Shown here one piece after another: positions 30,977 to 53,210 of a stretch of 64,000 nt of DNA. Each line of letters starts with the position of its first letter. The first letter of the stretch is position 1. Below the pieces are notes generated by a model that saw only the letters and a program-made list of their open reading frames with translations, did no database searches and was not told the origin of the DNA. The position numbers were made by a program, and so were the translations under genes. The DNA comes from a virus. Where the stretch lies: the IMG/VR virus record IMGVR_UViG_3300026290_000001; one strand, given 5' to 3'.

Positions 30977-30982
30977 ATGTGA

Positions 30983-32885: not shown

Positions 32886-32899
32886 ATTCTCACTTACTT

Positions 32900-33376: not shown

Positions 33377-33393
33377 TAGATACCCCCCTTTAC

Positions 33394-34566: not shown

Positions 34567-34590
34567 TAATCCACCCCCTTTTCATTTATT

Positions 34591-35124: not shown

Positions 35125-35149
35125 AATTAATTACCTCCTTTTCTTTATA

Positions 35150-35190
35150 AATAAAAAGGAGAGGGAAGGTTATTATCCTTCAAATTCTCC
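35150..35190 (-). terminator. intrinsic terminator (copy 1 of a repeated terminator module)
   Basis: Minus strand reads GGAGAATTTGAAGGATAATAACCTTCCCTCTCCTTTTTATTT. About 35 nt are nearly identical to 39369-39406. Confidence 0.6.
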
Positions 35191-35193
35191 TAG

Positions 35194-35514
35194 CTAGTTA
35201 TATTTATTTATCAATTTCTTAATAATATTAATACTCTTAAATACTTCTCGTTTTATCTCACTATGAGAATATTGATTTTCAGACAACGCTTGCAATGTTG
35301 CTATTAAAGATAAAAAACTAGCATCTTTTTTTAACTTCAAAATCAAATCCTTACTGCCCGTCAACTCAAGAATAAGACTATCCAAATATGATTTTAAAGT
35401 TTCTGGTTCTGACTCACTTATTGGAAGGATTTTGTACACACGACCAATCAAGAAATTCAGATAATTTAGAAAGAATTCATTGTCAATAATATTATCAATA
35501 TGTACTTTAACCAT
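35194..35514 (-). CDS. hypothetical protein
   Basis: 106-aa ORF whose start overlaps the upstream stop (ATGA). No motif recognised. Confidence 0.4.
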   Translation of the reverse strand: MVKVHIDNIIDNEFFLNYLNFLIGRVYKILPISESEPETLKSYLDSLILELTGSKDLILKLKKDASFLSLIATLQALSENQYSHSEIKREVFKSINIIKKLINKYN

Positions 35515-35969
35515 TATGAATCACCATAGGTATATAAAGTATAATCTACTATCATCCTTGAAATCTCTTTATCTAGTTCTTGTGCTAAAACCGTAAGTCT
35601 CAATAAATGTTCTGCCTGGGACGTTAATTTGAAATCCTTCGTTGTCATCCTTTGTTGCAATAATTCAAGATTATAAATCTTATCATTCAACCAATATTTT
35701 CTCATTATTGTAGCAAGAATTAATTTTTCTTCTTCTGTAAGAGTTTCATTAAATTTACCTTCAATTGCTTCTCCAGTTTCACTTTCATCTTCACTAACTG
35801 GTTCAACCCTATCATTTAAATCTTTCTCACATGCTTTAAACCTTGTTATTGCCTTTAATAGTAATCCGTGTAAAATATCATCTCTTTCAGATTCCGTAAA
35901 ATCTAAAAGAGAATCATCTTTTATATCACTAAGAAACATATTATATATTTCAGAATATAGTGAGGACAT
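35514..35969 (-). CDS. hypothetical protein (head-tail joining position)
   Basis: 151-aa acidic ORF downstream of the capsid genes. Call rests on position only. Confidence 0.3.
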   Translation of the reverse strand: MSSLYSEIYNMFLSDIKDDSLLDFTESERDDILHGLLLKAITRFKACEKDLNDRVEPVSEDESETGEAIEGKFNETLTEEEKLILATIMRKYWLNDKIYNLELLQQRMTTKDFKLTSQAEHLLRLTVLAQELDKEISRMIVDYTLYTYGDS

Positions 35970-35983
35970 TATCTTTGCCCCCT

Positions 35984-36706
35984 TTATTTAATGTTGATAA
36001 AATTGTCAACAGGTTTACCTTCAGGTTGTAAAAGAATATCCAATTCAATACCCATTGATTCTTCGATATAATTCTTTATTTTAATAGAATCCAATTCACC
36101 ACTTTTAATCATTTTTGCCGCTTGTTCGACCACTGAATTCTTATATCCACTAGGTAATTTATCAAACTTTTTCTTAAATGAATTAAAATCAAGTCTTAAA
36201 ATATCAGATACATTATTCAATCCAAGAATTTCTTCATAATGTTTGAAAATGTTTGCATATTTCAAAATTTCAATTTCATCATCTTCTATTACTCTAATCC
36301 AAGGCTCTCGTATAAATCTTGAGTCAGTATTTTTAAGATCAATAAATTCACCAAGTTCTATATTATTTGTATCTCCAGGGTTTTCCCAAACAATTTTATA
36401 ACCAATTTTACGTTTGGATTTATAAATCAATCTACCACTGGATATATTTTTTAAGCAAATCATACGATTAAGATCTGGTTTCCAAGGTTCTTCTTTTGGT
36501 TGGATATTTTTTTTAGATGTTTGAGAAGGTTTAGATTCAAGTTGGGAAGTATCGGTATTCAATTCTAAACTTTTTTTAATTCCTTCTACCTGTTCATCAT
36601 CTAGTTTAGTCATGTGACTTTTTACTTCATATCCTAAATCTTGTGCTGTTTCAATAATCTTTTTATTCTCAATATCTAGTTCCTTTGCCAATTCAAATAC
36701 TTTCAT
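35984..36706 (-). CDS. protein with IF2-N/Rho-N-like N-terminal helical motif
   Basis: Likely start at the ATG at 36704-36706. MKVFELAKELDIENKKIIETAQDLGYEVKSHMTKLDDEQ resembles the IF2 N-terminal (vyELAKEL..lG..vks) motif. Function in the virion is unknown. Confidence 0.4.
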   Translation of the reverse strand: MKVFELAKELDIENKKIIETAQDLGYEVKSHMTKLDDEQVEGIKKSLELNTDTSQLESKPSQTSKKNIQPKEEPWKPDLNRMICLKNISSGRLIYKSKRKIGYKIVWENPGDTNNIELGEFIDLKNTDSRFIREPWIRVIEDDEIEILKYANIFKHYEEILGLNNVSDILRLDFNSFKKKFDKLPSGYKNSVVEQAAKMIKSGELDSIKIKNYIEESMGIELDILLQPEGKPVDNFINIK

Positions 36707-36734
36707 ATTAAAATTTACTCCTCTCATTCTTTGC

Positions 36735-36761
36735 AATTAAAAAGAGGGGATTAACCCCTCT
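36735..36761 (-). terminator. intrinsic terminator after the major capsid gene
   Basis: Minus strand reads AGAGGGGTTAATCCCCTCTTTTTAA: a 7-bp GC-rich stem followed by a U-run. Confidence 0.75.
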
Positions 36762-36802
36762 AAATAATTACTATAAAATTATATTGATAATTTATAATTT
36801 AA

Positions 36803-37801
36803 TTAGTCAGATATTTGATATCTGCCATAAAGGTCAGTAATTACAATACCAGTACCGTACCGAGTAGCTGCAAAGTAATCTTGGGTCAAATCTTGGTTGG
36901 CAAGTGCATCACCACTGATAATTCTCATTTCACCTTCGGTTACAAATTTTACAGGTTTTGCATCAACGGATACTATATAAAGATCACTTTCAGAAAGTTT
37001 GAAATTATATGTACCAACGGTGTGAACCTGTTTGATTCTCATCATAGGAGTACCATTAAAGTTACCATAATAACCCATTTTGTACATATCATCTTTTGCA
37101 GCATCAGCTATAATAGCAGTAGTTACTTTCCGTAGTGCTTTTCTAGTTCCTGCAATCATGGCAGATTTGCCAGTGGCGGCTTCAACGTGTTCAATTACAT
37201 CAAGTAAATCTTCTTCATCAAAAGAACCATTGTCGGTGAATCCAGCAGGTAAACCAGAGAAAGCACCAGTGAAAGCGGTGTAAATATCATCGTTAATTTT
37301 CAGTTTGAAAGCCTTATCTAATGCTTCAAGCATTTCGTTAAAGTCTACACGTCCGGCGAGTAAACGAGAAAGATGTTCGTATATTTTGATGCCTTTCCAA
37401 GAGGTGGTGATAGAAACATTAGTTCCAACATCTAAACGCTGTCTACGTAGAGATTGAGTTCCATCGGCAATTTCTGAAATTACCAACATGGTGCGGTCTG
37501 GCGCATAGAAACTATTCTGATCACCAAGGGCAAGGTTCTTATATTCCACAAAATTTTCAAAGAAATTATCATCAGGAAGTCCTTCAAGGACAGTGTTTTG
37601 AAGAATCTCTTCTAATATTTCAAACATTGCTACGCCATTTCTACGGAATGATTTATAATCCAATTTGGTAGAACCACCATTGAGTTCTATAAAATGTTGG
37701 CGCAATGCCTCTGTTGCATCGGATTTACTAAATTTATCATGTGAAAATTTATTTTTATAAATATCTTTCGCTAATTTTACCAAAGTTTTATTATCTTCCA
37801 T
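36803..37801 (-). CDS. major capsid protein
   Basis: 332 aa with a strong RBS (AAAGGAGGAA) and its own terminator. Lies downstream of the portal and scaffold-like genes. Sequence style (..GTQSLRRQRLDVG..TAFTGAF..AMIAGTRKAL..) fits HK97-fold capsid proteins. Confidence 0.75.
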   Translation of the reverse strand: MEDNKTLVKLAKDIYKNKFSHDKFSKSDATEALRQHFIELNGGSTKLDYKSFRRNGVAMFEILEEILQNTVLEGLPDDNFFENFVEYKNLALGDQNSFYAPDRTMLVISEIADGTQSLRRQRLDVGTNVSITTSWKGIKIYEHLSRLLAGRVDFNEMLEALDKAFKLKINDDIYTAFTGAFSGLPAGFTDNGSFDEEDLLDVIEHVEAATGKSAMIAGTRKALRKVTTAIIADAAKDDMYKMGYYGNFNGTPMMRIKQVHTVGTYNFKLSESDLYIVSVDAKPVKFVTEGEMRIISGDALANQDLTQDYFAATRYGTGIVITDLYGRYQISD

Positions 37802-37838
37802 TTAATTTATTCCTCCTTTATTTATATTAATAGATTAA

Positions 37839-38369
37839 TTATCTAACACTAATCATCTCTACCACATTAAGATACTTCGAACCATTGTAGATTTCTCTTG
37901 CAATGATTTTTCCATAGAAAACTTCACTCTTAGCAATGTTGGCTACTTCTGCCCACTTAACACCTGTGGCGTCAGGAGCAACATAGGAATTAACTGCGGG
38001 GATGCCACTACCACTGCTAATCGGAGTAATGCAATCATCGCTGATACTAAAAGTGTCACCAACTTCAAGAGGTATTAGAGTAATATTCGCACCTGCGGCA
38101 TTTTGAAACTTGTCTAATGCCTGACCAGATTTCGTTGATTCATCATAGATGATTTCTGGACTGGCTACAAGGTAACAATTAGGAGTAGTTTCACCCCCAG
38201 GTGCCACACACTTCCAGAGTTCTCTTTCTCCCGTAATTAGGGAATGCAATTTTACGATACATCCATTGTCAATAGCAGTAGGATCAGCACCTACATAGTA
38301 CCGTCCACTCTTGATATTACCTGCTTTAGTAGCCTTGATTGCGTCTGTTCTTACGATTCCGTATGCCAT
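37839..38369 (-). CDS. head protein (scaffold or decoration candidate)
   Basis: 176-aa ORF immediately upstream of the capsid gene. No family recognised. Confidence 0.35.
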   Translation of the reverse strand: MAYGIVRTDAIKATKAGNIKSGRYYVGADPTAIDNGCIVKLHSLITGERELWKCVAPGGETTPNCYLVASPEIIYDESTKSGQALDKFQNAAGANITLIPLEVGDTFSISDDCITPISSGSGIPAVNSYVAPDATGVKWAEVANIAKSEVFYGKIIAREIYNGSKYLNVVEMISVR

Positions 38370-38385
38370 ATTATAAATTCCTCCT

Positions 38386-39336
38386 TTAAATTTTTAGTTC
38401 ATTTTTTAAAATTTCCTCAATATTATCAAATTCCCAATAGGGAATACGAAGCAAAATTATATTATGCTTTTTACAATATTCATTTTTTAGTTCATCATGA
38501 ATTTGTAAAGTTTCAAACTCCTTCTTGGTCATCATACCTTTAACCCATTCATAATGTTGTTTCCCGTCATATTCAATCAACATTCTTAATTGGGTTTTTT
38601 CTTTGTCCCAAAATACAGGAACATCAAATTTAAGTAAACCTCCTCCAACGCCCTTTAAATCATCAAAAGTATATTGGGTGTGATGTGGAATATCATATTT
38701 TGTAAGTAAAATATCTAATTGTTTCTCTCCTTTAGATTCTGCACACTGGGAACAACCTCTATTATTGCAACTTCTACTGAATATTTTTGCTTTCCATTCA
38801 TACCCACATTCTAAACATTTCCACCAAGCGTACTTATTACAACCATAAGTTATATCATAGGGAGTTAAATCGCCATTTTTGGTAGGATGCCACTCTAAGG
38901 TTAGGTCTGGTCTTTTAGTAGCGAGACAGTTTGATAATGTTACTTGCGCCCCTACGCAAACACCACATCCATTACCACTATAAATACCACTCCAATCAGC
39001 TAGAAAAATTTCTCCACAATCTTCTTTTAAACATCTCCATTGCATTTTAGTTTTTGCATTGCTATAATTTGTACTTATTAACTCAAAAGGTTTATTATTT
39101 AATACACACCAATTTTTCATATTTTGAATTGTGTATGGATTAGAAACATCAAATTTCATTGGATTGCTTCTTAAAAATACCGATATACTTTGAAAATAAT
39201 AATAACTATCCATATCTTTAAATGTTAATTTTGAAAGCGCATTCTTATATTTCAAATCAATCAAAATATAACCTTTTGCTAATAAAGTTTCCTTCACTAA
39301 CTCATAAGTCCATTTAGTACCACTTGTATAACCCAT
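38386..39336 (-). CDS. free-standing endonuclease-like protein (zinc ribbons plus Vsr/DUF559-type PD-(D/E)xK C-terminus)
   Basis: Start placed at the ATG at 39334-39336 after GAGGAGG. Treble-clef repeats (WRCLKEDCGEIF, LEWHPTKNGDLTP..WWKCLECGYEWKA..CSQC). The C-terminus FDVPVF..MLIEYDGKQHY resembles the D..(I/V)E.DG..H endonuclease core. It interrupts the scaffold-capsid gene order. Confidence 0.55.
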   Translation of the reverse strand: MGYTSGTKWTYELVKETLLAKGYILIDLKYKNALSKLTFKDMDSYYYFQSISVFLRSNPMKFDVSNPYTIQNMKNWCVLNNKPFELISTNYSNAKTKMQWRCLKEDCGEIFLADWSGIYSGNGCGVCVGAQVTLSNCLATKRPDLTLEWHPTKNGDLTPYDITYGCNKYAWWKCLECGYEWKAKIFSRSCNNRGCSQCAESKGEKQLDILLTKYDIPHHTQYTFDDLKGVGGGLLKFDVPVFWDKEKTQLRMLIEYDGKQHYEWVKGMMTKKEFETLQIHDELKNEYCKKHNIILLRIPYWEFDNIEEILKNELKI

Positions 39337-39361
39337 AAATTCCTCCTCATCCTTGTTTACA

Positions 39362-39406
39362 AACAAAAATAAGGAGAGGGAAGGTTTTTATCCTTCAAAT
39401 CTCCTT
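39362..39406 (-). terminator. intrinsic terminator (copy 2 of the repeated terminator module)
   Basis: Minus strand reads AAGGAGATTTGAAGGATAAAAACCTTCCCTCTCCTTATTTTTG, nearly identical to the module at 35150-35190. Confidence 0.6.
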
Positions 39407-39483
39407 TTATATAAAGAGGTAGTGGGAACATACCCCACCAGGAGTAACCTCCAAATCTTAATTTCTTTTAATTTTTACTCTAC

Positions 39484-40950
39484 TTACTCTTTCTTCGAAT
39501 ACTTCTCTAAAAATTCATCAACTTTACTATGATTCTCTTCAATCTTCTTACTAAAATCCAACTTCACTTTATCATTTTTATTTTTCTCTTTTGGTTTTGA
39601 AAAATTATTAGCACTCTGAATACCTAAAATCATATAACACTCTTTTTCCAAATCTTTAATTTTAAATTCAGATGCGGTTTCTTTCAATTTTTCATATTCA
39701 GGAATACCTTGAAGTTTATCATCGAATCGAGAGAAAAGATTTTGTTCGGATTCTTTGCGTTCTTCGGCAAATTTTATTGCCTGATATTCACGCAGAGCAA
39801 TTACTTCTTCTTCTAGAGCAGAATAATTGTTTCTCATAATATCAATTGCTTCTTTTTCTTCTTTTGTAAGTCTATATTGGAAAAGTTCAATTCTTTCTCC
39901 CACAAAAGATACAACATCTTCTTCCTTTTTATATCCTTGACGATATATTTTTGTACCTTCCCAATTTTCATATTCAAAACGATCATCATAAACCTGATCA
40001 ATAAAATACCATTCATTATCTTCATCTTCCACGGGAGATAATAATTGATATAAAGCATATCTTATCTCTGAATGCGAAAGTTCAAAAGATTTGATGAATT
40101 TTTCTGGTTCGTTATTATCATCGTTTTCTGAATCTAAATCATTGGTAGAATACAATTCTTTTAATTTCTCCTCGATTTCCTCAAATTGCATCTCTTCTAT
40201 ATTAAAAGGTAATTCTTCTAAAGTTACCTTATATTCAGAAAGCAAAGCAATTATCTTTTCATCCACATTACTACCTCCTTTTTCAGTTTTATCTATATCA
40301 TAATTAGAAAGAGTATTTTTTAACTCTTCCATCATTAAGATAAACTTTTGTTTTGTATATTCTTCAAATGTTCCAGTAGTACCCAAAGCATTTTCCATAC
40401 CAGTACCAGAATCTTTATTTAAAAATGTAATACCTTGATATCTATAATCAGTTATATTAAACACCTTATCTTTTGCATTAAAAGTATATCCATCAATAAT
40501 AATTTCCATAGATAATTTTATATTTTCATCTCTTTCAATTATATCTTCTGCATAATTTGAGTACTCACGCCAAATATATGCATCCACAAAAACATAATTT
40601 TTGCCATTAAATTCTTTTATTTCATGATTACAATTTTCTGGCACAAGCCCAATTGGGGTTTCCTGAAATATTACTTTATATTCTCCTTCTTTTATCTTGT
40701 TGGGTTCTAAAGTCATATCATGGCCACCAAATTGAGGTTGTCCATCTTCATCAAAAATTACATTTGCAAGAATTGGAATGTTTTTTATAGAATCTTTTGC
40801 ATTTTCCATATCTGACACTATAAAATTACTCTTATTTGGGTTCACGCCATCATGACACACCCTTAATCGCATTTTTATAAATTTTTCAGAATCAAAAGAT
40901 TCATCCACTTCATATGTGGTAGCAAGTGAAAGATGTTGCAATTCATTCAA
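39484..40950 (-). CDS. scaffolding / capsid-maturation candidate
   Basis: 488 aa downstream of the portal. The C-terminal half is acidic and coiled-coil (EELPFNIEEMQFEEIEEKLKELY..), as in scaffold proteins. The N-terminal domain is unassigned. Confidence 0.4.
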   Translation of the reverse strand: MNELQHLSLATTYEVDESFDSEKFIKMRLRVCHDGVNPNKSNFIVSDMENAKDSIKNIPILANVIFDEDGQPQFGGHDMTLEPNKIKEGEYKVIFQETPIGLVPENCNHEIKEFNGKNYVFVDAYIWREYSNYAEDIIERDENIKLSMEIIIDGYTFNAKDKVFNITDYRYQGITFLNKDSGTGMENALGTTGTFEEYTKQKFILMMEELKNTLSNYDIDKTEKGGSNVDEKIIALLSEYKVTLEELPFNIEEMQFEEIEEKLKELYSTNDLDSENDDNNEPEKFIKSFELSHSEIRYALYQLLSPVEDEDNEWYFIDQVYDDRFEYENWEGTKIYRQGYKKEEDVVSFVGERIELFQYRLTKEEKEAIDIMRNNYSALEEEVIALREYQAIKFAEERKESEQNLFSRFDDKLQGIPEYEKLKETASEFKIKDLEKECYMILGIQSANNFSKPKEKNKNDKVKLDFSKKIEENHSKVDEFLEKYSKKE

Positions 40951-40969
40951 TACTTAATCACCACCTTTA

Positions 40970-41146
40970 CTAAAAAATCATTTTATTACTAAAAATAAAT
41001 TGCTTCTTATCTAGTTGATTGAAATCAAATGATATAGAAGAAGAATTCTCAAAAATAAATAAACTATCGGTAGAAACCAATAGTTTAAATCCATTTTGCA
41101 ACAATTTATTTTTTAGTTCTTGATTAAAACAGTGAATAAACTTCAC
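40970..41146 (-). CDS. small hypothetical protein (58 aa, GTG start)
   Basis: Not in the ORF track. GTG at 41144-41146 lies 9 nt after AAGGAGG; translates VKFIHCFNQELKNKLLQNGFKLLVSTDSLFIFENSSSISFDFNQLDKKQFIFSNKMIF*. Confidence 0.35.
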   Translation of the reverse strand: MKFIHCFNQELKNKLLQNGFKLLVSTDSLFIFENSSSISFDFNQLDKKQFIFSNKMIF

Positions 41147-41181
41147 ATTAGGATACCTCCTTCTTTAAATTAAATATTTAA

Positions 41182-42708
41182 TTATGTCCTATTATCAGGA
41201 TTATTACTATCAACCACCTGACCTGCTTCTGTTGATCCTTCTATATTATCCCCCTTACTTTTTGCCCCACCTTTATTAGAATCCTGATAAGCTGATTTAA
41301 GTGGCACAAATTTATCCGTAATTTTCATCACATCATTTTCAAGTAGTATCGAATTCATCACATCAGAAGGAGATAGTCCCAAAGACGCACAATAATGACG
41401 TTTTACTGGAAGTCCAACTGTACTTGCTTCTCTATACATAGTTGCTAATTCATTTTTGTTATATCTTGTAATGTCCAAGAAAGTAACCTTGAAATTTATT
41501 TTTTTATTTTCATCTTTCAATCTGCGATTTATCCATCTCTCAAATTGCCGTAATAATTGAAATACAGTTGCTTCATCACTCATAATGGCTTTGTTCAAGG
41601 CGGCACCAGATGCTTTATCACTATTAAAAATAAGTTTTGGTACACCAGCCGAATTATAAATTGAATTCTCTGCCAAACTTACTCCATCTAACTCTCTTTC
41701 ACTTTTATTAAGTTTAATGGATTCTACGGAATCAAAAGGGGATAATGCGATTCCGATTTGATTAGGTAAATTACTACCCATAAGCTGATAGTACTCTTTG
41801 GCAATATCTAAACTTAAGGCGAAATTATTGGCAGAATCATCACTTTTGTTATATGGAATCTTAGCAATAAGTAGTAAATAGTTTTCTAATTCAGTTTTAG
41901 ACATCTGAATATCCTTATACTCATAAAGTGAATAAATATCTTCAAATATTCCCGCCAAAGGTGGTATAGAATAATCGGTGTTAGATATTTTAATGCAAAT
42001 AGTTTTACTAGAATCTAACTCTTGCCATTTCATATTCTTTCTATCTTTTTTATAAATTTCATATTTTTCTCTAAATTCAGGAGCATACCTTTCTAAATCT
42101 TTTGGATAGGTGTCAAAATAATTGAACGAAAAACTGTAATTGTAGCACCCATCCTCAATACTACTTATAGCACAATAATCAGGGTTTAATAAATCAAAAA
42201 AGAAAGAATTTTTAGTTGAATAAATATACCCATACGCAACATCATCTATAAATGCCCTATATGTTAATTTTGAAAATTCATGTTTAATATTCATTGTTTC
42301 TAATAAATTTAATGTTGTTATATATTTTTTTTCTATTGTTGTAATTAAATCTTTAGTAATTTCATAATCAGTTTGGTTATATATATCTACCACATAATCA
42401 AAAGTTAACATTGTGGAAAAATAATCAATTAATCTTCTATAATGAGAAGAACTATCTAACAAAAACCTTGATAAATCTCTTAGTTTCTTTTCATATTTAT
42501 GAGGATTTGCTAACCATGCAATTACATCATTTTTTGAAAATGTTTTATTAAAAGTAGAATTTGGTTGAGTATTATTTAAATCTTTTTTTATGTATTTTGC
42601 AAACTCAGCAAAATGAAGCATCATACGTTGAAACTGCATATCTTCTTTACTTAATGGTACATCGGTTTTAATAATTTCTTCTTTAATATCTGTTTTAGTA
42701 TCTGTCAA
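41182..42708 (-). CDS. portal protein
   Basis: 508 aa immediately downstream of the large terminase. Size and position are canonical, but no signature was checked. Confidence 0.65.
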   Translation of the reverse strand: MTDTKTDIKEEIIKTDVPLSKEDMQFQRMMLHFAEFAKYIKKDLNNTQPNSTFNKTFSKNDVIAWLANPHKYEKKLRDLSRFLLDSSSHYRRLIDYFSTMLTFDYVVDIYNQTDYEITKDLITTIEKKYITTLNLLETMNIKHEFSKLTYRAFIDDVAYGYIYSTKNSFFFDLLNPDYCAISSIEDGCYNYSFSFNYFDTYPKDLERYAPEFREKYEIYKKDRKNMKWQELDSSKTICIKISNTDYSIPPLAGIFEDIYSLYEYKDIQMSKTELENYLLLIAKIPYNKSDDSANNFALSLDIAKEYYQLMGSNLPNQIGIALSPFDSVESIKLNKSERELDGVSLAENSIYNSAGVPKLIFNSDKASGAALNKAIMSDEATVFQLLRQFERWINRRLKDENKKINFKVTFLDITRYNKNELATMYREASTVGLPVKRHYCASLGLSPSDVMNSILLENDVMKITDKFVPLKSAYQDSNKGGAKSKGDNIEGSTEAGQVVDSNNPDNRT

Positions 42709-42795
42709 TAAAATTACACCACCTTTCTATGTGAAATTTATATTTATGTTTATTGATTTGTTATTTATATAATTAATTATATTTTTATTTTGTTA

Positions 42796-44670
42796 TTATC
42801 GTTTGCGAATTTGGGGTTTTTTAAATTGAAATAATTCTTGGACATTAATATCGTTGTTGGTTTTTCTTTGTGTAATATGTTTTCTTCTTAATTGTTGCAA
42901 ATACCATGCTAACATGGCAATGCAATATGCACGGTCATCGTGCATGATTCTTTCTTTATCAGGTGGAAGATTATATCTATATCCACCATTAGGACTATCA
43001 AATCTATAAATATTTACCAATTCTTCTTTTGCCAAATCAATATTTTTTAATGCTAATTCTTCATCAAAAGATAATTTATGTATTTTTTGACTAGATTGAA
43101 TATCTTTCTTTTTATTTTTATTATCATCTTCATATTCTACTTCCTGATTCTCAAATAAAGAAATATATCCCTTCATATCATACTCTTCTGTAAATGATAT
43201 TAAATCTAATCCCAACATTTCAACTAATGCATCAAACATTTCATTTTTATATTTTTTAGGACTCATTAATTTTAATTTATCTACTGCATTTGGAAATTTA
43301 GTAATATAATCAGCAGATTCTATTTTATCAATCAACCCTTTATGTGGATTGCCTTGTTGATCAATCCAATCCTCCATAAGATAGTCTGCAATATTTACGC
43401 CAGCACCGCCAGCACCCGAATCAATGAGAATTGCTTCAATATTTTCATAATCAGCACATTGTTTTCCATTGTAATCTAAAATCATTTGTTTTAAATATGC
43501 AATTTGTTCTGGTGTTCTCATTGGTGTTTTTTTCTTCTTACCAATGTCTACAAAACTAACACCATTGCAAATTCTCATTTTATATCCAACTTGTTCATCA
43601 AAATAAATTTCACCAACTAAAGATACCGAATTATCATAACTCCTAGCAGGATCATATCCTATCACAAACTTACTATTATCAGTGTTATATAAAATAGGAG
43701 GTCTAACTTCACTATTTCTAATTATAACTGATCTTTTAATTGCCTGATTTTCTCCGCCTTCATTAGAAAATTTATTATAATACTCTCTTAAGGCTTTAAT
43801 TTTATTCTTTTTCATAGCATCTTCTACAACTTCTTTTTTCAACAAAGATGGGTAAACCTTACCATTATAAGTAGAATTAAATACAATTTCTACATTTATA
43901 TCTGCAACAAAATAATTTTTATTACCTAAAAACATCTCTTTGGCATAATCTCTATATACCTTGTAAAAATATGTGTCCGTACCAGATGCTGAAGATGCAA
44001 ATATTGCTTGGTTAGGAAACTCTTTAGGTAATAAATCTAAGTTTATATCTCCACCTAATTTAAAGTTACTATCTTGTGTAATAAAGGGTAGGGAAGTAAT
44101 AAACAATTCTTCTGGTGCAAAACCACTTTCATCATAAATATTTAAATTACTTCTTTTACTTCTATTATGATCAAAAGCACCATTTAGTGAATTTAAAGCA
44201 CTTCCATTATAAAGTTTATATTGAAATGAAGAAGGATTATGTGTAAATCCATCAGTATCAGACCTACTTTTAACTGTTTCATTATAAAAAACATCTGTTA
44301 ATCCAGTAAAAGAAGCAATTTCTCTTTTTGCTATTTTTTCTATTTTCATAAATGCTTCTTGTGCTTGACTACCAACTCCACTCATTACATATGCTTGAAA
44401 ATTAGATATTAAATTAGTCTTTGCCATTGCAAAAGGTGCAATCATTGTAGTTTTACCACTACCCCTACTCTGACACCATACACAAAAAGGAGTTGTCCAA
44501 CTCATCATAAAAACATACTTTTGACTATCTAAAAAATCAATTCCATAGAAACGTTCACAAAAACGAATGGGGTATTGCCTCCCCCATTGTACAATTTGTA
44601 CTAAACGCATATATCCTTCTAATTTTCTTTGAGACATTTCTTGTTTTGTTTTTTGAATAATATATTCCAT
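42796..44670 (-). CDS. terminase large subunit
   Basis: Walker A CQSRGSGKTT and Walker B LNIYDESGF. C-terminal nuclease-type segments GYDPARS and LIDSGAGGAG. Confidence 0.9.
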   Translation of the reverse strand: MEYIIQKTKQEMSQRKLEGYMRLVQIVQWGRQYPIRFCERFYGIDFLDSQKYVFMMSWTTPFCVWCQSRGSGKTTMIAPFAMAKTNLISNFQAYVMSGVGSQAQEAFMKIEKIAKREIASFTGLTDVFYNETVKSRSDTDGFTHNPSSFQYKLYNGSALNSLNGAFDHNRSKRSNLNIYDESGFAPEELFITSLPFITQDSNFKLGGDINLDLLPKEFPNQAIFASSASGTDTYFYKVYRDYAKEMFLGNKNYFVADINVEIVFNSTYNGKVYPSLLKKEVVEDAMKKNKIKALREYYNKFSNEGGENQAIKRSVIIRNSEVRPPILYNTDNSKFVIGYDPARSYDNSVSLVGEIYFDEQVGYKMRICNGVSFVDIGKKKKTPMRTPEQIAYLKQMILDYNGKQCADYENIEAILIDSGAGGAGVNIADYLMEDWIDQQGNPHKGLIDKIESADYITKFPNAVDKLKLMSPKKYKNEMFDALVEMLGLDLISFTEEYDMKGYISLFENQEVEYEDDNKNKKKDIQSSQKIHKLSFDEELALKNIDLAKEELVNIYRFDSPNGGYRYNLPPDKERIMHDDRAYCIAMLAWYLQQLRRKHITQRKTNNDINVQELFQFKKPQIRKR

Positions 44671-44678
44671 TAATTATT

Positions 44679-45833
44679 TCACACCTTTAAATCACCTTCA
44701 TAATTATATATTTTTGTTTTTAATAATCTATTTTCTTCTTCTAATTTATCATTAGACTCGGTAAGATTTAAAATCATTTCACGTTGCTTAGTAATCATTT
44801 CAGTATAATCATTTTCGTCAAATATTAATTGTTCAATAATACTTTTATTGCTTATATCAGCAACTTGCTTTATACCCTTGCAAGTTTCTATATCAAATAA
44901 ATTAACTTCTGAACCTGGTATTTTTTTTTCATGCAAATCTTTAATTATTCCTGATAATGTACCTGCTCCTTTTGATTTATTAGTTGCATGATTTACTGAT
45001 ATACCATTATCTTTAGCCAATGCTAATAATGAACGATACATCTTATCTTTTGCTTCAAATAATGATTTAACTCCACCTACAGAATTTGCAACATTATTAA
45101 CATCTGCTGTCATAATTGCTAACGCTTGATTAATTTTATCTATTTGATTAAAACTTTTAACTATTTCTATGACGGTTGGCAGTTTGAACGAATCCTCAAG
45201 TGTGCTTTCGTCAAGAAAATCAACTAAAGTATTATAAAGATATTTTTTATCCATAGGGTTTTCATTCTCAAATGGATCATAACCAACCATACGAATTACA
45301 TCTTCTTTATTTCTTTTATCCAACTCATTAGTATCTAAATCAATTTCCGTTTGAAATATATTTGGATCAACATTTGTATCTAATGGTACAGATTCAGAAA
45401 ATGTTTTTGATTTCCATTGTGGTAAACTATTAATTTTTTGAAAGTAGATTTGAGCTATATTACTATTACTGTTACTTGCTTGTTGTTCAGCAGTTAAATA
45501 TACCGATGAATCAAAATAATAATCTAATAATCTACATAAAAAATATAATGCCACTTTACAATCATCATGTTTTTCAACAAGATAAGCATATAAATCAATT
45601 ACACATTGTTTACAAATGACTGTACGTTGGTTATTCCCCTTTAATATTATAGAATTTGACAAATAGTAGTTTCTTTCTTGCTCTTTTTCTTCTCCACAAC
45701 AAACGCATTTAAACATAATTTTTTCTTTTTTTTCTTGTGGTACTTTTTTAGTACCAGATTTTACTTTAGGAATAAGTACCACTCCTTTTATCCTTTGATC
45801 TAAAATAAATTTTCCCAATTCAATACACAACAA
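44679..45833 (-). CDS. zinc-ribbon protein upstream of terminase (small-terminase candidate)
   Basis: CVCCGEEK..CKQC zinc ribbon and a C-terminal coiled coil. The call rests on position only and the start is uncertain (TTG at 45833 or ATG at 45716). Confidence 0.3.
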   Translation of the reverse strand: MLCIELGKFILDQRIKGVVLIPKVKSGTKKVPQEKKEKIMFKCVCCGEEKEQERNYYLSNSIILKGNNQRTVICKQCVIDLYAYLVEKHDDCKVALYFLCRLLDYYFDSSVYLTAEQQASNSNSNIAQIYFQKINSLPQWKSKTFSESVPLDTNVDPNIFQTEIDLDTNELDKRNKEDVIRMVGYDPFENENPMDKKYLYNTLVDFLDESTLEDSFKLPTVIEIVKSFNQIDKINQALAIMTADVNNVANSVGGVKSLFEAKDKMYRSLLALAKDNGISVNHATNKSKGAGTLSGIIKDLHEKKIPGSEVNLFDIETCKGIKQVADISNKSIIEQLIFDENDYTEMITKQREMILNLTESNDKLEEENRLLKTKIYNYEGDLKV

Positions 45834-45897
45834 AACACTTTCAAAATCCCAATAGAGTAGGGAAGTGAAAGTGTTTAATGTAAATTGAATTATTTAT

Positions 45898-46206
45898 TTA
45901 ATTATCTTCCAAACTTTCTATTACAATATGATCTACCATCGTCTCAAAGAAAGATTCAAGAACGTCATGTACGCACCCAGGGCATATTTGACCATCGGCA
46001 AGTTCATAAATCATTTCAACATATCTATCTATGGTACAATTCACACAATCACAACCATCGTCTTCATCATCATAATCACTAAAATTCAATTCTTCAAACA
46101 TTTCATCAAAATCATTTTCACTACATGGTTCATCATTAATAGCATACCTAGAACCTACAAATTCTCCTGTACGATCATCATAATATTCGTCAATACTTAA
46201 TTTCAT
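45898..46206 (-). CDS. acidic Cys-containing hypothetical protein
   Basis: 102 aa, very acidic, with CDCVNC and CPGC pairs. No family recognised. Confidence 0.4.
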   Translation of the reverse strand: MKLSIDEYYDDRTGEFVGSRYAINDEPCSENDFDEMFEELNFSDYDDEDDGCDCVNCTIDRYVEMIYELADGQICPGCVHDVLESFFETMVDHIVIESLEDN

Positions 46207-46258
46207 AAATTAATCTCCTTTAATTCATTTATATTTATTTTAATAATTTAATTAAAAT

Positions 46259-47227
46259 TTAAATTGGTATCAACATCAACTTAGTTTTATCATAAATTAA
46301 TTCACCATTGTCATTCTGACACACATATATAAATCCTTGCTGTTGTGGTACAGTTAATAATCCATCGGTATAATCCATTGCTTCTGTTTCACAACAACAA
46401 CCTTGTTCATACATATATATATCACCTTGAATATAAGAACCAAGTTTATGAGTGTGGGCTAATATAATTGAATCAAAATCCCTATCAATCCTAAAAAAAT
46501 AATCAATAGCTTTTTCAGTAGTTTTTAACATTCCATTTGAAGATGTTCTAGGATGTGCAAACCATGTTTTCCCTATTTTACATTTCCAATCTTTTGTATA
46601 TTCAATATCAATATCAAAAACATTTTTAATAGGTTCATACCAAATTTCTGTTTTTTGCCTTTTATCATAATTTTTAAAACCATTATCAATAATCATATCT
46701 AAAGAAGTATCAGGCATTAATTGAAGTAAATCATCGTGTATTTTATCACTAAAATATTTTTGTAATCTCAATTCATGATTCCCATAATTTAAAATCACTT
46801 TCTTTGGTTTTAAATATTCAATTAAATCAATTATGTATTGCCTAGTTTCAATCATTTCTTCAACAAAATTAACTCTATATTTTTTACTAAATTTACTAAT
46901 TGATTGACAATCAGATATGTCTCCATTTAACTGTAAAACGTCAACTTTATTTATATATTCTCTAAAAGTTTTTACTGGAAGTTGAAATGGAACGTGAGTG
47001 TCAGATATTGATAAAATTCTAGTAGCAACACCATTGCTTTTAAGATAGTTGTCATACTCAATTAAACCATAAGCAGTTTTTCTTAAATGATCTGCACTAC
47101 AATCTAACTTTAATAAATCAACAATTTCTTGCCATTCAATATCATATTTTTCTATAAGTTTTAATTTGCATAATCTTAATTTCCATTCAAAACCCGATTC
47201 TGAATCTTTCTTATTTAAAAATTCCAT
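46259..47227 (-). CDS. calcineurin-like metallophosphoesterase
   Basis: Motifs in order: SISDTHVP, LNGDISD, NYGNHE and ILAHTHK. Confidence 0.8.
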   Translation of the reverse strand: MEFLNKKDSESGFEWKLRLCKLKLIEKYDIEWQEIVDLLKLDCSADHLRKTAYGLIEYDNYLKSNGVATRILSISDTHVPFQLPVKTFREYINKVDVLQLNGDISDCQSISKFSKKYRVNFVEEMIETRQYIIDLIEYLKPKKVILNYGNHELRLQKYFSDKIHDDLLQLMPDTSLDMIIDNGFKNYDKRQKTEIWYEPIKNVFDIDIEYTKDWKCKIGKTWFAHPRTSSNGMLKTTEKAIDYFFRIDRDFDSIILAHTHKLGSYIQGDIYMYEQGCCCETEAMDYTDGLLTVPQQQGFIYVCQNDNGELIYDKTKLMLIPI

Positions 47228-48380: not shown

Positions 48381-49202
48381 TTAAGGATTTTCTATTACTT
48401 TAGCAGGTCTATATTTATCTTTATAATTATGCCATGCTTTTCTCTGCCATTCTAATTGTTTTTCCCTCCAACAACTCCTACAAAATTTTCTTCTATTAGA
48501 TGTTGCTTTTATTAATTTTCCACATTCATTACAATTAATAATTTTTGGATTACCATTATACAAATCAAAGTAATATCCAATATTATCAAAGGTAGTTATT
48601 TCAAAAACTACTATTCCATTTTCCTTGATATTATTCATAAATATAAGATGAATTTTCCCCTTCATTCTAACATCAACCAATCCTAAAATCTCTAATTCAT
48701 TAATTATGGCATTTATTTTATACTCATTATTAGATATTTTAGACACTTCTAATATCTCATTATATGTATTTTGATTACCACTTATATAATTATATTTTAA
48801 AACATTTCCGTATTTTAATTTATGTATTTCTTTATATATCTTCATTTCTACTAACAAAACAAACAGAATTTTTTTATAATTATACTCTATATCTAAATTA
48901 TTAATGTATTCAATTTCTTCGTTTGTTATAGGAATACTATCAATAATTATTAAAGGGTTATCTTTTCTACCTCCTTTTTTGAGTGCAGTATTAATTTGTT
49001 TGAAATATAAAACATCATTGAAATTAACTATATACTTCTTGCAAAATTCATATAATTTTTCTTTTCGTTGTTTAGGTTTTATGCCAAGTTTTTTCCAATA
49101 TTTAACTAACAAAACCAATTCATAATTATGACGTTCAGTTAAAAATCCATGTTGTTCAATTTGTTTTGCATATTCTTCTTCATTGTATTTTTCTTGAATC
49201 AA
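48381..49202 (-). CDS. hypothetical protein with C-terminal zinc ribbon
   Basis: CNECGKLIKATSNRRKFCRSCW at the C-terminus. Lies directly downstream of the RNA polymerase gene (4-nt overlap). Confidence 0.4.
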   Translation of the reverse strand: MIQEKYNEEEYAKQIEQHGFLTERHNYELVLLVKYWKKLGIKPKQRKEKLYEFCKKYIVNFNDVLYFKQINTALKKGGRKDNPLIIIDSIPITNEEIEYINNLDIEYNYKKILFVLLVEMKIYKEIHKLKYGNVLKYNYISGNQNTYNEILEVSKISNNEYKINAIINELEILGLVDVRMKGKIHLIFMNNIKENGIVVFEITTFDNIGYYFDLYNGNPKIINCNECGKLIKATSNRRKFCRSCWREKQLEWQRKAWHNYKDKYRPAKVIENP

Positions 49203-52003
49203 ATAATCACTTCTTCCAACTTGTACTTTTTATTCAAGTAAACAATACCCCCTTCTTTATTAGGCATGGGAAAAAATATAGATTCTTTTGTGTTTGATTT
49301 AATATTTGAAAAAATATACTTACCAAAGGAATTCCATAAAATATCTTTGTTTGAACTTTTATATTCACAATAAAATATTTCAACTAAATAATTAGTTAAT
49401 TCATATGCGTATGAACATATTTCAAACATTCTACTTTTAAAGTCATCATAAATATTATTTACAATACGATCAGATTCTTCATCAAATTGCTCTTTGTTGG
49501 CATTTTGATTAATACCCATAGTATTCAAGTCTTTTAATTCTTTCATAAATTTTTTATACTCATTTAATACTTTCTGATAGGTTTCTTGATTTTTAGGAAT
49601 ATCATTTTTCATATATAATTTATACAAATCACCTATTTTACTTGTTTTTAATTTACTTTTAATATCAAAATCAACATTTTCAATATGTTTACACAATAAA
49701 TTCATTACACTGTCACTATCAATTACTGGTAAAAATCTATAATATGCATCCACAAAAGACTGTTCTTTTTCATTACAATTTTCCTTAATTAATAGTTCAT
49801 TTAATGTTAATCCAAATTTTTGCTGACTAGACAAATCGTTACTTTTGACATATTTTTTATATTTATTATAGGTATTTTTATAAAGATGAATAAAAAAATA
49901 TGGATGTTTATCCAATAATATTTTATTTAAAAATTCCTTTTCTTTTTTAACTTTTTCATCATCATCTTTATAAATTTTTTGCCTTTCAATCCAAATCTTA
50001 GGAATGCCCTTAACTTTTTTACCTATTTTTGCTTTATCAATTTGAGCAGATTGAAGTTTCGTACACATTTTTAATCTATTTATCAATGTTTGATATTCCA
50101 AACTTTCTTTATTAAAAAGAGGGAGTAAGGCATAAGCACTTGTACTTTTATTTGTTATAGAGCCTATAGTGGAACCAAAGGCGAAAAGATCAGCTTTATA
50201 TAAATCTTCTTCTGTAAATACCATAGATATAGATTTAGGTGCATCATAAACCACTGGCAACTCATCTTGAAATATTGAATTTAATATTGTTTGATCAGAA
50301 GTAGTTGCAATAATATCAAAATCCCAATCACTTCCAGCCCAATTAAGAGTTTCATAACCATGTATATTTACTATTACTCCACCATCATCACAATACTTAT
50401 ACCATTTATTTAATTTATCATGATTAATTAAATTTAATTTCAAATGTTCTGATTTATAAGTAAGTGGTGCTCTCATTGAATCTACGATACAAACATTTTT
50501 TTTATTCCAATAATTACAATAATACTCTTTTTCTTTAAGCAATCCAGTAACCTTTTGCCCGCAAATATGTTGCATCATAGCATAGGGATCACTTACTAAA
50601 ACCTGAAAATTTCCATCTAAAATAATTTCACCAAGACAACCTCTTTTTATGATATTGTTAGTATATTTATAAACTTTATCTCTGATATATTTATCATTTT
50701 TTAATTCATGATTAACTATCAAACTTTTTAACCAATAATTATTACTATACTTTAAAAAATATTGAATACTTTCTTGAGTTATATTTTCTCCTAATAAAAA
50801 TAATAACGTATAATATATATTATCAAAATTGACCCCAGTAACCCAATCAACAAAAGGAGTACAAATCTTCTTAATATCTTTTTGGTTTAAATCCAAAGTC
50901 TGTAAAAATTGATAATTCATTTTTAATATATCATTAGGTTTTTTAGGAGAAGTTAAACTAACACCCCATTTTAAATCATTCATCTCGCAATTATGTATAT
51001 ATTCTTCTAAACTACCAAACGCATTCCAAAGTTTAAATTGACTTTCCGATACAACCACATCGATATCCCTTAAATCAACCTGTATTGGATTATTATTGTC
51101 TTTGTATATAGTATTTATTATATAATTACCATGATTTTCATTTTCACAATATTCATCTATATCAAATACGCAGAGCATCCCTTTCAGAAAATTCTGCCTG
51201 ACACAAAATTGACCAGGAATATAATCTAATCCTAATTCTTCTGCCCATTCTTTAGCTTTACTTGGTTTAATCAACCCTTGACCATCAAACCTATTAAAAC
51301 TCAACTCTACTTCTTTAATTACAATATCATCATCTTTATTTTCTTCTGTTTCAGTTACAAAATTAACATTAACTTTTTGCTTAATTTCATAATCAGGCAC
51401 TACACAAAATTTAGGCGTACTTACTATTTTTGTAGATGAACCCGACAATCCTTTATATGCATTGTATTTAGAAGGGCATAGGGGTATATTTTTATCTCTA
51501 TTATTATCTAAAATTTCATTAAGTTGATTTAAAATTTTCTCGTTGCAAAATACCACTGTTGAAACTCTGGATTGACTGGCAGATGATGATAATCTAAAAT
51601 ACCGTTCAGAATTTAATAATAATCCATTTTTAAATAAATAATTATAATGTGAGTTATGTTCCATTACTATAGTTATGTACTCAGGAATAAAAAGCATATC
51701 TAAAATATTATTTTGTAATTCTATTATTCTACTTGAGTTTTCCTTTGAATATATTTGTTTTTTTAACCTATCTCTTTCTTTATACCATTGTTCAAGTTGT
51801 ATATAATTAATTTCTTTACCAGTTATTTTTCTAATACTTCTAAGAATTTGATTGTCTGATAAAGCAATTAACTCACCATTTTGTTTAGCTTGTTGTGGAG
51901 TTAATTGTATATCATACCCATATTCTTTAAGCCTAGATGATTTAAATTTCATAGTATATAATTGTCTATTTATCAATATTTTTTGCCTCCAATAAATCTT
52001 CAT
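49199..52003 (-). CDS. single-subunit two-barrel RNA polymerase, YonO / cellular-RdRP-like
   Basis: GQFCVRQNFLKGMLCVFD parallels the RdRP Q.R...aKGml.vD barrel motif. VDSMRAPLTYKSEH parallels v.RnP.lhpgD. NWAGSDWDFDIIATT supplies a DxDxD metal-binding loop (coding 50315-50329). The start is uncertain (ATG at 52003, TTG at 51979 or ATG at 51952). Confidence 0.75.
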   Translation of the reverse strand: MKIYWRQKILINRQLYTMKFKSSRLKEYGYDIQLTPQQAKQNGELIALSDNQILRSIRKITGKEINYIQLEQWYKERDRLKKQIYSKENSSRIIELQNNILDMLFIPEYITIVMEHNSHYNYLFKNGLLLNSERYFRLSSSASQSRVSTVVFCNEKILNQLNEILDNNRDKNIPLCPSKYNAYKGLSGSSTKIVSTPKFCVVPDYEIKQKVNVNFVTETEENKDDDIVIKEVELSFNRFDGQGLIKPSKAKEWAEELGLDYIPGQFCVRQNFLKGMLCVFDIDEYCENENHGNYIINTIYKDNNNPIQVDLRDIDVVVSESQFKLWNAFGSLEEYIHNCEMNDLKWGVSLTSPKKPNDILKMNYQFLQTLDLNQKDIKKICTPFVDWVTGVNFDNIYYTLLFLLGENITQESIQYFLKYSNNYWLKSLIVNHELKNDKYIRDKVYKYTNNIIKRGCLGEIILDGNFQVLVSDPYAMMQHICGQKVTGLLKEKEYYCNYWNKKNVCIVDSMRAPLTYKSEHLKLNLINHDKLNKWYKYCDDGGVIVNIHGYETLNWAGSDWDFDIIATTSDQTILNSIFQDELPVVYDAPKSISMVFTEEDLYKADLFAFGSTIGSITNKSTSAYALLPLFNKESLEYQTLINRLKMCTKLQSAQIDKAKIGKKVKGIPKIWIERQKIYKDDDEKVKKEKEFLNKILLDKHPYFFIHLYKNTYNKYKKYVKSNDLSSQQKFGLTLNELLIKENCNEKEQSFVDAYYRFLPVIDSDSVMNLLCKHIENVDFDIKSKLKTSKIGDLYKLYMKNDIPKNQETYQKVLNEYKKFMKELKDLNTMGINQNANKEQFDEESDRIVNNIYDDFKSRMFEICSYAYELTNYLVEIFYCEYKSSNKDILWNSFGKYIFSNIKSNTKESIFFPMPNKEGGIVYLNKKYKLEEVII

Positions 52004-53210
52004 ACTCTAAAAAATTAAGTCCTAATTCTTTAAAATCATTCATTACATTATATTTATAATTACGTACTTTATAATGTGAATACAATAAAGAACCACTTCT
52101 ACTTTCTCGAATTCGTTTTCTAGGCATCATTAAAATATATCTATTTGCACCTTTTGATTCAACAAATTTTAATTCCTTTAATATCAATTTTGCAAGATTA
52201 AGAATATTATCAGGATAATTATTAACCATTTTAAATCTAATATTATCAAGTTTATGATCATCTTCTAAAAATAATAGATAAATAGGTTTATTATTAAATC
52301 GAGATAGTTCTTGCTTTAATTTATTTAATTCTAATTTTCTTTCTTCTTTATGTTTTTGGAATTGTTTAAAATATGATTCTTCATTTTTTCTAATAGTTTC
52401 TTGTCTTTTTAACTCTTTTTCCTTCTTTTTATCAGAATATTGTTTATTTTTATTAAATACTTCTTCTGAAAGTAAAAAATTATTATTTTTAAAAATGAGT
52501 CCATTAATATCAATAATATATTTCTTAATATCTTTATCAAAAGATATTAATTTATTATGCAACAAATGTCTTTTCTCGTTATCATAATATTTACCATTTG
52601 CAATTTTAAATCTAAAATCACTTAAGCCCAATATATTCAAATGAGTATAATTAAACATAAATAATTTGTACATTGGATCAAAATAAAAACCTGTAAATTG
52701 TTCTATTGCTTTATCTCTAAACCTATTTCCTATTTCTGCTTTTTCAATATATTTATCCGTCCCTAAAATCCAAATATCATTTATATCTGCTAATTTATAT
52801 AATTCATGTCTTTCTAAACATTCTGTTGCTATTGGACTACATTGAAATTCGAAAACAAATCTTTTATCACCTATTTCAAAATACAAATCAGGTCTTTGCC
52901 TAGTTTCTGGTATATATGATTCTAACTTTATATTTGATAAACCATCTTGCTTTAACAACCAATTATAAAGCATTATTTTACCTTTAATATGTTCGTCTGT
53001 TTCAGGTTCATAATAAATACCTTCACAATTAATATTTTTTTCTTTATGTCTAAAATATGGATAAACTATTTCTCCGTGACAATACTCATAAAAATTACCA
53101 CAATCGGGACAAAGTAATCTATTTTCTTCAGACCATTTTTTTAGAATAAATTTATCATATTTACCATCAAAACAATTAATAATTGTATTACCAATCTTAC
53201 AAGTTAACAA
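51966..53210 (-). CDS. CoiA-like nuclease-family protein
   Basis: LLCPDCGNFYEYCHGEIVYPYFRHK..ETDEHIKGKIMLYNWL..LESYIPETRQRPDLYF..FVFEFQCSPI..ERHELY..DIWILG follows the CoiA pattern (CP.C..HF.H..ES.EH...K..E..qRPD..iE.Q.S..eR...Y...Wil). Confidence 0.7.
   Translation of the reverse strand: MLTCKIGNTIINCFDGKYDKFILKKWSEENRLLCPDCGNFYEYCHGEIVYPYFRHKEKNINCEGIYYEPETDEHIKGKIMLYNWLLKQDGLSNIKLESYIPETRQRPDLYFEIGDKRFVFEFQCSPIATECLERHELYKLADINDIWILGTDKYIEKAEIGNRFRDKAIEQFTGFYFDPMYKLFMFNYTHLNILGLSDFRFKIANGKYYDNEKRHLLHNKLISFDKDIKKYIIDINGLIFKNNNFLLSEEVFNKNKQYSDKKKEKELKRQETIRKNEESYFKQFQKHKEERKLELNKLKQELSRFNNKPIYLLFLEDDHKLDNIRFKMVNNYPDNILNLAKLILKELKFVESKGANRYILMMPRKRIRESRSGSLLYSHYKVRNYKYNVMNDFKELGLNFLEYEDLLEAKNIDK

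Follow-up and report, generated by a model that had tools for sequence, protein, structure and literature searches.

A YonO-family single-chain RNA polymerase and a translationally coupled ribbon protein ahead of the late genes of an SPβ-like phage

The 64,000-nucleotide (nt) virus sequence IMGVR_UViG_3300026290_000001 (the window, by which we mean this whole stretch) carries an open reading frame (ORF) at 49199..52003 on its minus strand that encodes 934 amino acids (aa) from its first ATG and holds the peptides GQFCVRQNFLKGMLCVFD, VDSMRAPLTYKSEH and NWAGSDWDFDIIATT. A preliminary description had read these peptides by eye as signatures of a single-subunit RNA polymerase (RNAP) of the two-barrel type, similar to YonO and to cellular RNA-dependent RNA polymerases (RdRPs), that heads the late gene array. 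The ORF and its three peptides are where it placed them, and the assignment is supported by sequence, profile, fold, invariant residues and synteny. Immediately downstream, at 48381..49202 (-), lies a gene for a 273-aa protein, referred to below as the partner, whose TTG start overlaps the TGA stop of the polymerase gene as TTGA (49199-49202). This ribbon protein, which the preliminary description overlooked, is a conserved, translationally coupled companion of the polymerase.

The first ATG is probably not the true start of the polymerase. A ribosome-binding site, GGAGG (51986..51990, -), lies 9 nt upstream of an in-frame TTG (51974-51976) that is codon 10 of the 934-aa ORF. The closest annotated homologue, that of phage BUCT082, begins at the position equivalent to this TTG at 51976, and the gene call on L039, a metagenomic contig of 138,134 base pairs containing the same sequence, starts there as well and gives 925 aa. 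In the AlphaFold model the residues ahead of the TTG, 1-9, are disordered, with a predicted local distance difference test score (pLDDT) below 50. For these reasons translation probably begins at TTG 51976 and yields a protein of 925 aa.

The polymerase falls over its full length into phrog_8308 of the PHROGs collection (E 8e-166), a family whose function is unknown. Of 50,697 phage records searched with tblastn, 40 match it. Among them are BUCT082, at 54.6% identity and 99% coverage, Clostridium phage c-st, and phages of Enterocloster and Thomasclavelia with a gene annotated ‘RNA-dependent RNA polymerase’. The same search reaches SPβ yonO (E 7e-16) and its relatives (E about 1e-16), and the Goe11-14 records among the matches carry the annotation ‘yonO: DNA-directed RNA polymerase’. 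BLASTP against SPβ YonO extends over 600 residues at 23% identity (E 3e-25) and pairs all three previously quoted motifs with their YonO counterparts, namely FCVRQNFLKGMLCVFD with FMVRLPWVKGLLVPFD, VDSMRAPLTY with IDILRSPHLF, and SDWDFD with FDNDGD, so that the by-eye assignment of the two-barrel motifs proves right. We built one alignment of 74 relatives of the window polymerase (A1, 52-90% identity) and another of 40 members of the YonO clade (A2); compared profile to profile with hhalign, they match over 705 columns (100% probability, E 2.2e-47). More than 1000 relatives of the window-type polymerase are present in the protein collection searched. We have high confidence that the polymerase is a true homologue of SPβ YonO.

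Eight residues are common to all two-barrel RNAPs, in QDE-1 D709, R738, K743, R962, P964, D1007, D1009 and D1011 (PMC2919709). The equivalents in the window polymerase, D240, R269, K274, R511, P513, D559, D561 and D563, do not vary in any of the 74 relatives, and 29 residues separate the first Asp from the first Arg, as between D709 and R738 of QDE-1. The catalytic segment of the first double-psi β-barrel comprises residues 240-280 (51164..51286, -) with D240-G241, which supplies the fourth acidic residue, R269 and K274-G275. These residues are likewise unchanged throughout the 74 relatives and align with D249, R266 and K271 of YonO; the segment also aligns with DGIG...IR...KG of RDR2. The second barrel contains the RxP motif R511-A-P513 (50465..50473, -), which aligns with R492/P494 of YonO and corresponds to R962/P964 of QDE-1. 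The metal-binding loop D559-W-D561-F-D563 (50315..50329, -) keeps the Asp triad and aligns with DNDGD of YonO. The codon coordinates were checked by translation (RQNFLKG, 51179-51199; RAP, 50465-50473; DWDFD, 50315-50329), which confirms the earlier reading of the metal loop as DWDFD.

The loop departs from the canonical form DxDGD, whose Gly is also found in QDE-1 and in all multisubunit polymerases. The corresponding position is Gly in 40/40 members of the YonO clade, while at position 562 the 74 members of the window clade have Tyr (35), Phe (22), Met (16) or Leu (1) and never Gly. The consensus of the window clade is G-S-D-[FWY]-D-[YFM]-D, with the three Asp invariant (74/74). The Gly does not belong to the eight universal two-barrel residues. 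YonO cannot work without its Asp triad, as its 3D>3N mutant has no activity (PMC5467207). Because the three Asp are untouched and conservation is strong, the sequences argue for an active enzyme.

Because no sequence-only search of the PDB with the polymerase reached significance (the top phmmer match was a designed protein at E 0.43, and a profile search reached RDR2 at E 0.17), a fold search was needed. The AlphaFold2 model built on alignment A1 has a pLDDT of 89.5 and a predicted template modelling score (pTM) of 0.85, and, judged at the level of the whole chain, both double-psi β-barrels lie within one polypeptide of cellular-RdRP-like fold. In a Foldseek search of the PDB, each of the top 21 matches, which are all of the significant ones, is a structure of RDR2 from plants or of QDE-1 from fungi (probability 1.00, E 5e-16 to 3e-12, template modelling score 0.4-0.49) and spans the whole chain; weak matches to the largest subunits (β′) of bacterial and eukaryotic RNAPs follow. 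The preliminary description had proposed YonO, QDE-1 and crAss gp66 for structural comparison. QDE-1 was matched, as was RDR2, but no structure of YonO or gp66 is among the 50 PDB matches listed, and within that list a relationship to the crAss-like phage enzyme that it had mentioned was not detected. Polymerases of the gp66 type lie inside a giant virion protein; that of the window has a 925-aa ORF to itself, apart from the structural module.

How firmly is the partner gene linked to the polymerase gene? We searched 38 loci with the neighbour proteins of the window: 36 that encode relatives of the polymerase (L003-L038), BUCT082 (L001) and SPβ (L002). In 32 of the 38, tblastn finds a homologue of the partner longer than 150 aa immediately 3′ of the polymerase gene. 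These loci are labelled Bacilli, Paenibacillus, Lachnospiraceae and Clostridia, together with several contigs of metagenome-assembled genomes labelled as other phyla; their polymerases are 32% to 69% identical to that of the window, and the spacing between the two genes is mostly -10 to +2 nt. A profile of the partner family adds the gene directly after the polymerase in L034, L036 and L037, the loci most remote from the window, where the polymerase is about 28% identical, and likewise in phages c-st (CST177), PMBT24 and MT835481. When three contigs with a polymerase-partner fusion (described below) are counted as one locus and L039-L041, which belong to the phage of the window itself, are left out, the partner family follows the polymerase, or is fused to it, in 38 of the 44 other distinct loci examined. 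No member was detected in SPβ, Perkons, TR-TP1, L032, L038 or the listed relatives of L049. A HMMER scan of 1.84 billion cluster representatives found 1390 members of the partner family at E≤1e-3.

The locus of Clostridium phage c-st (L045, 3489-7422) illustrates how the partner has been read before. There the annotation divides the polymerase between the ORFs CST179 and CST178. The next ORF, CST177 (276 aa), matches the partner family over its full length (hmmsearch E 1.7e-26) and belongs to it. The record names CST177 ‘YonO-homolog (C-ter only)’, that is, a fragment and not a separate conserved protein.

The C-terminus of the partner consists of a Cys4 ribbon, CNECGKLIKATSNRRKFCRSC (48471..48533, -), and a basic helix, and the C-terminus of SPβ YonO likewise is a ribbon followed by a basic tail. 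The two ribbons are homologous. Against YonO 799-819 the partner ribbon is 57% identical in BLASTP (pairwise E 1e-5), and hhalign of the partner family with the YonO clade gives 96.9% probability and E 1.8e-10 over the last 50 columns, which cover the ribbon and the basic tail. The match extends to positions other than Cys (SNxxKYC), and C799, C802, C816 and C819 of YonO are invariant across its clade. As a control, generic zinc-ribbon families of Pfam match these proteins no better than E 0.0075. The distribution of the ribbon is complementary: CxxC...CxxC is absent from every window-clade polymerase examined, and the two examined polymerases that carry the ribbon themselves, those of SPβ and Perkons, lack a separate partner gene.

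A natural fusion joins the two proteins. In P0380, a cluster representative of 1173 aa, the window polymerase aligns along its entire length with residues 2-913 at 40% identity, and the partner profile matches residues 918-1169. The ORF is identical on five contigs, three of which (L042-L044, from Logan) come from the different runs SRR18474652, SRR18474653 and SRR18474588, and its setting is SPβ-like, with a GIY-YIG gene and a gene with a YonV_C domain upstream. Taken together, the ribbon homology, the complementarity of ribbon and partner, and the fusion form split/fusion evidence of the usual kind that polymerase and partner work together, and the two presumably associate physically.

Pfam, PHROG and NCBIfam hold no family for the partner. 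An AlphaFold model built on 22 sequences (pLDDT 86.2) consists of an N-terminal helical domain, a helix-helix-helix-strand-strand unit, the two-hairpin ribbon and a long basic helix. Its structural matches are of the winged-helix type and weak, and a predicted role of the partner in DNA binding is plausible on this basis, if weakly supported. In its predicted combination of a winged helix with a zinc ribbon, the partner resembles initiation factors of multisubunit RNAPs, namely archaeal TFE, eukaryotic TFIIE-alpha and RPC62 of RNAP III; the resemblance is an analogy of domain types without sequence homology, and the domain order and the basic C-terminal helix of the partner differ. We infer a role in promoter recognition or initiation from these domain types, from the fact that the partner is obligatorily linked to the polymerase, and from the lack of a known specificity factor for YonO.

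On the other side of the polymerase, a gene at 51966..53210 (-) encodes a 414-aa protein with a CoiA-like nuclease domain (Pfam CoiA_nuc PF06054, E 3e-27); the CoiA N-terminal domain is weak in this product (E 0.01) and below the cutoff. The preliminary description took a 38-nt overlap of this gene with the polymerase gene as a cue for co-expression. That figure assumes the first ATG, and with the more likely TTG start the overlap is 11 nt. Moreover, the CoiA-like gene is an occasional neighbour: judged by tblastn or gene lists, a homologue stands beside the polymerase in only 3 of the 44 other distinct loci, L001 (BUCT082), L016 and L031. It is also present in L039 and L040, which are contigs of the window's own phage. 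Because it is so rarely present, a functional partnership between the CoiA-like gene and the polymerase was rejected.

Downstream of the partner gene lie two small ORFs (48018-48227 and 47534-47920, both -) and a tRNA-Thr with anticodon TGT (47256-47331, -), the latter between the polymerase cassette and a yonJ-like metallophosphoesterase gene (46259-47227, -), just upstream of the late array. This co-directional, SPβ-like array (2513..47227, -) is the presumed template of the polymerase and measures roughly 46 kb. Following the yonJ-like gene, we identified in it genes for a protein with a YonG_N domain (44679-45833), the large terminase (42796-44670), the portal (41182-42708), the tape measure (20687-26731), Dit (19865-20638), tail proteins (16972-19845 and 6692-7843), an endolysin (2893-3609) and a holin (2513-2872), all on the minus strand. 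The polymerase gene thus does stand upstream of packaging, head, tail and lysis genes, as had been described, and the gene order of the window is the SPβ order yonO...yonJ...yonG...late genes. No homologue of yonK or of HU (yonN) was found between the polymerase and the late genes in the window. A scan with Pfam and/or PHROGs of all 52 ORFs of at least 110 aa and several shorter ones revealed no sigma factor and no β or β′ subunit, in agreement with the earlier statement that the window holds neither a sigma factor nor a multisubunit RNAP. A DNA search gave no close named phage, the single match being 96 nt long, and the portal is at most 38% identical to known portals of large Bacillota siphoviruses.

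Several other elements share the window with these genes. Within the late array lies an element of the IscB / omega-RNA (OMEGA) type (13105-14685, -), composed of an IscB ORF (13105..14397, 430 aa; Pfam RRXRR 2e-54 and HNH 4e-14) and, directly 5′ of it, a HEARO RNA (Rfam RF02033, 14475-14685, 121.7 bits, E 1e-24). Among the head genes there is a homing or HNH-type endonuclease gene (38386-39366, -; PHROG 559, Pfam DUF4379 treble-clef finger). A 36-nt repeat, AAGGAGAGGGAAGGTT.TTATCCTTCAAAT, whose copies are 92% identical, occurs just upstream of this gene (39365-39400) and upstream of ORF 34591-35124 (35150-35185). Upstream of the polymerase follow the CoiA-like gene, small ORFs, three DNA methyltransferase genes and a tyrosine recombinase gene. 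The methyltransferase genes, of the N6/N4 type, are arranged in tandem (54187-55014, 55455-56204 and 56249-57034, all -), and the latter two are recent duplicates, with 74-91% identical DNA including the upstream regions. Altogether there are three tyrosine-recombinase genes of the phage integrase family (5113-6117, 27164-28201 and 59714-60592, all -), two of them within the structural and lysis array. The GC skew flips at both ends of the window, where plus-strand genes (1-2002 and 60600-64000) mark the borders of the long minus-strand block; those at the left end encode a deoxynucleoside monophosphate kinase and a 5′-nucleotidase, and a RadC-like JAB protein is encoded at 63200-63670.

Promoters were sought in several ways. 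A scan for sigma-70-type promoters and terminators between 44.5 and 61.5 kb was discarded, as it returned 145 sites against 143 expected in this DNA of 25% GC. In the 2.5 kb downstream of the partner in 30 loci, a search for shared words of 9-11 nt with at most one mismatch yielded only A-rich low-complexity words, barely above shuffled sequence. The published SPβ transcription start (position 2225998 of B. subtilis 168) could be mapped onto SPBc2 only approximately and was not used as evidence. One 19-nt motif, ATTTTATTAATATAAATAT, is strongly enriched in the window and strand-specific: with up to three mismatches allowed it matches 18 times, where 2.3 matches are expected, and 16 of the 18 lie on the coding strand. 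Examples on the minus strand are 12406-12424, 37818-37836, 46231-46249, 48009-48027, 48308-48326, 55033-55051, 55434-55452, 56228-56246, 57061-57079, 58580-58598 and 59553-59571. The motif usually precedes a start codon by 17-27 nt, on either side of the polymerase gene, often directly abuts the Shine-Dalgarno sequence AGGAGG, and is absent from the related loci searched. It could be a translation element, a processing site, or a promoter from whose 3′ edge transcription would start. We did not assign it as a promoter of the polymerase, because it is missing in other loci and often touches the Shine-Dalgarno sequence.

YonO-like proteins have been recognised in Firmicute phages and prophages since 2003-2010 (PMC2919709), YonO was identified as the late-gene polymerase of SPβ in 2017 (PMC5467207), and c-st appears in a published list of phages with a YonO-like enzyme (PMC7824862). 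As a processive DNA-dependent RNAP, YonO is required by 37 late genes of SPβ, which are silent in its absence, and these late genes form one operon with a start site upstream of yonK (PMC5467207). The window polymerase shares with SPβ YonO about 700 homologous residues, both barrels in one chain, the same eight catalytic-site residues, and a gene position ahead of a yonJ/yonG/terminase late array in a large (125-138 kb) SPβ-like siphovirus genome. It differs in being about 85 residues longer and only 23% identical, in its loop (DWDFD vs DNDGD), and in lacking the N-terminal 78 residues and the C-terminal Cys4 ribbon of YonO, the ribbon residing in the window on the 273-aa product of the next gene. 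The cassette of CoiA-like gene, polymerase (54.6% identity; UAW07825.1, ‘hypothetical protein’) and partner (43% identity) recurs in BUCT082. With QDE-1 and RDR2 (PF05183), which are its best structural matches, the window polymerase has in common the catalytic residues and their spacing and a weak sequence match over the segment DGxG...IR...KG; identity is about 12-14%, and the eukaryotic enzymes have DYDGD. The task of QDE-1 and RDR2 is RNA silencing, with RNA or single-stranded DNA as template, and not the late transcription of a phage. Phages that encode a YonO-type polymerase upstream of the late genes are therefore of an already known kind, of which the split two-gene form is a variant. 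We found no description of the near-universal coupled partner, the ribbon homology or the Gly-less loop in the searchable literature, in which few subscription journals are covered; the same literature yielded no paper on a YonO accessory factor.

We consider it probable that the ORF encodes a catalytically competent YonO-family single-chain two-barrel RNAP, and we propose a two-gene mechanism of late transcription. The polymerase would be made together with the partner from an early or middle transcript, with translational coupling through the TTGA overlap. It would then act, by analogy with SPβ YonO, as a DNA-dependent, host-independent RNAP and would transcribe the roughly 46-kb array of packaging, head, tail and lysis genes that starts a few hundred bases downstream; specificity for the late genes is a reasonable supposition from the same comparison. 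The partner would most likely bind both the polymerase and DNA, as a subunit that serves initiation or promoter recognition or else clamps the DNA. SPβ YonO, according to this scheme, would have kept only the ribbon and basic tail of the partner module, fused to the polymerase.

Certain observations weigh against this interpretation. Pfam and NCBIfam give no significant match for the polymerase itself, the canonical Gly of DxDGD is Phe in it (Tyr, Phe or Met across the clade), and the identity of the window clade to YonO is only 23%. No late promoter or start was identified, the sigma-70-type scan being at chance and no motif being common to the regions downstream of the partner. Finally, QDE-1, the structural relative, also shows RNA-dependent activity, so that the fold does not settle template preference. 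It is conceivable that the window protein is an RdRP that copies or amplifies phage or host RNA, for example into double-stranded or antisense RNA, and does not transcribe DNA. The closest solved structures are indeed the eukaryotic RDR2 and QDE-1, and many homologues have PF05183 matches and are named ‘RNA dependent RNA polymerase’ in their sources; precomputed matches of this kind are present in many relatives at 52-69% identity, while the window polymerase itself has no match to PF05183 (RdRP) at E≤1 and hence stays below the gathering threshold. These names, however, stem from automatic Pfam transfer. The gene sits at the yonO position of an SPβ-like genome, and a partner of the DNA-binding type fits a DNA template. 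YonO, so far the one member from bacteria or phages to have been characterised, uses DNA as template and is responsible for late transcription (PMC5467207). We regard an RNA-copying function as very unlikely and DNA-dependent activity as the expected property of the window polymerase.

A different division of labour is that the polymerase, although active, serves another step (early or middle transcription, replication priming or a small gene set) and that host RNAP reads the late array from the AT-rich motif. The 18 occurrences of ATTTTATTAATATAAATAT against 2.3 expected, on both sides of the polymerase gene, would fit such a scheme, as would the lack of a YonK homologue and of a conserved late start site. 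Yet for a classical -10 element the frequent contact with the Shine-Dalgarno sequence is awkward, the motif is not conserved in related loci, and no phage sigma factor was found in the window ORFs scanned; in addition, the polymerase has the same position relative to the late genes as in SPβ, where these genes are YonO-dependent. We judge this scheme to be quite unlikely. Lastly, the partner might be functionally unrelated to the polymerase, for instance an ordinary phage regulator, its ribbon resembling that of YonO because short Cys-rich motifs have converged. Homology is confined to about 50 residues, the structural matches of the rest of the partner are weak, and SPβ, Perkons and TR-TP1 have no separate partner gene. 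Convergence would nevertheless have to account for a match that covers SNxxKYC and the basic tail at E 1.8e-10, where generic zinc-ribbon Pfam families reach only E 0.0075, for an adjacency with stop/start overlap that spans the range from Bacilli to Lachnospiraceae and persists where the identity of the polymerases has dropped to about 28%, for a full-length polymerase-partner fusion in nature, and for the ribbon carried by the partner-less polymerases of SPβ and Perkons themselves. An unrelated partner is therefore unlikely.

YonO-type enzymes are, to our knowledge, the simplest known relatives of the cellular multisubunit RNAPs, and they figure in discussions as models of the single-chain ancestor of those enzymes. 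How YonO recognises its promoters, and whether an accessory factor takes part, was stated to be unknown (PMC5467207). The partner is a concrete candidate for an initiation or specificity factor of YonO-type enzymes, and a compact, rifampicin-independent transcription module of two genes could serve as an orthogonal expression system. Tentatively, and as a possibility that we do not favour over its contrary, we suggest that most YonO-type polymerases may be two-component enzymes in which a subunit of ~270 aa with winged helix, Cys4 ribbon and basic helix, coupled to the polymerase and encoded directly behind it, provides promoter recognition or initiation, SPβ YonO being a derived, ribbon-only form. 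If this is true, it would answer the question raised in 2017 of how YonO-type enzymes find their promoters, and the partner would be a minimal counterpart of sigma or of TFE/TFIIB for a single-chain polymerase of the ancestral type.

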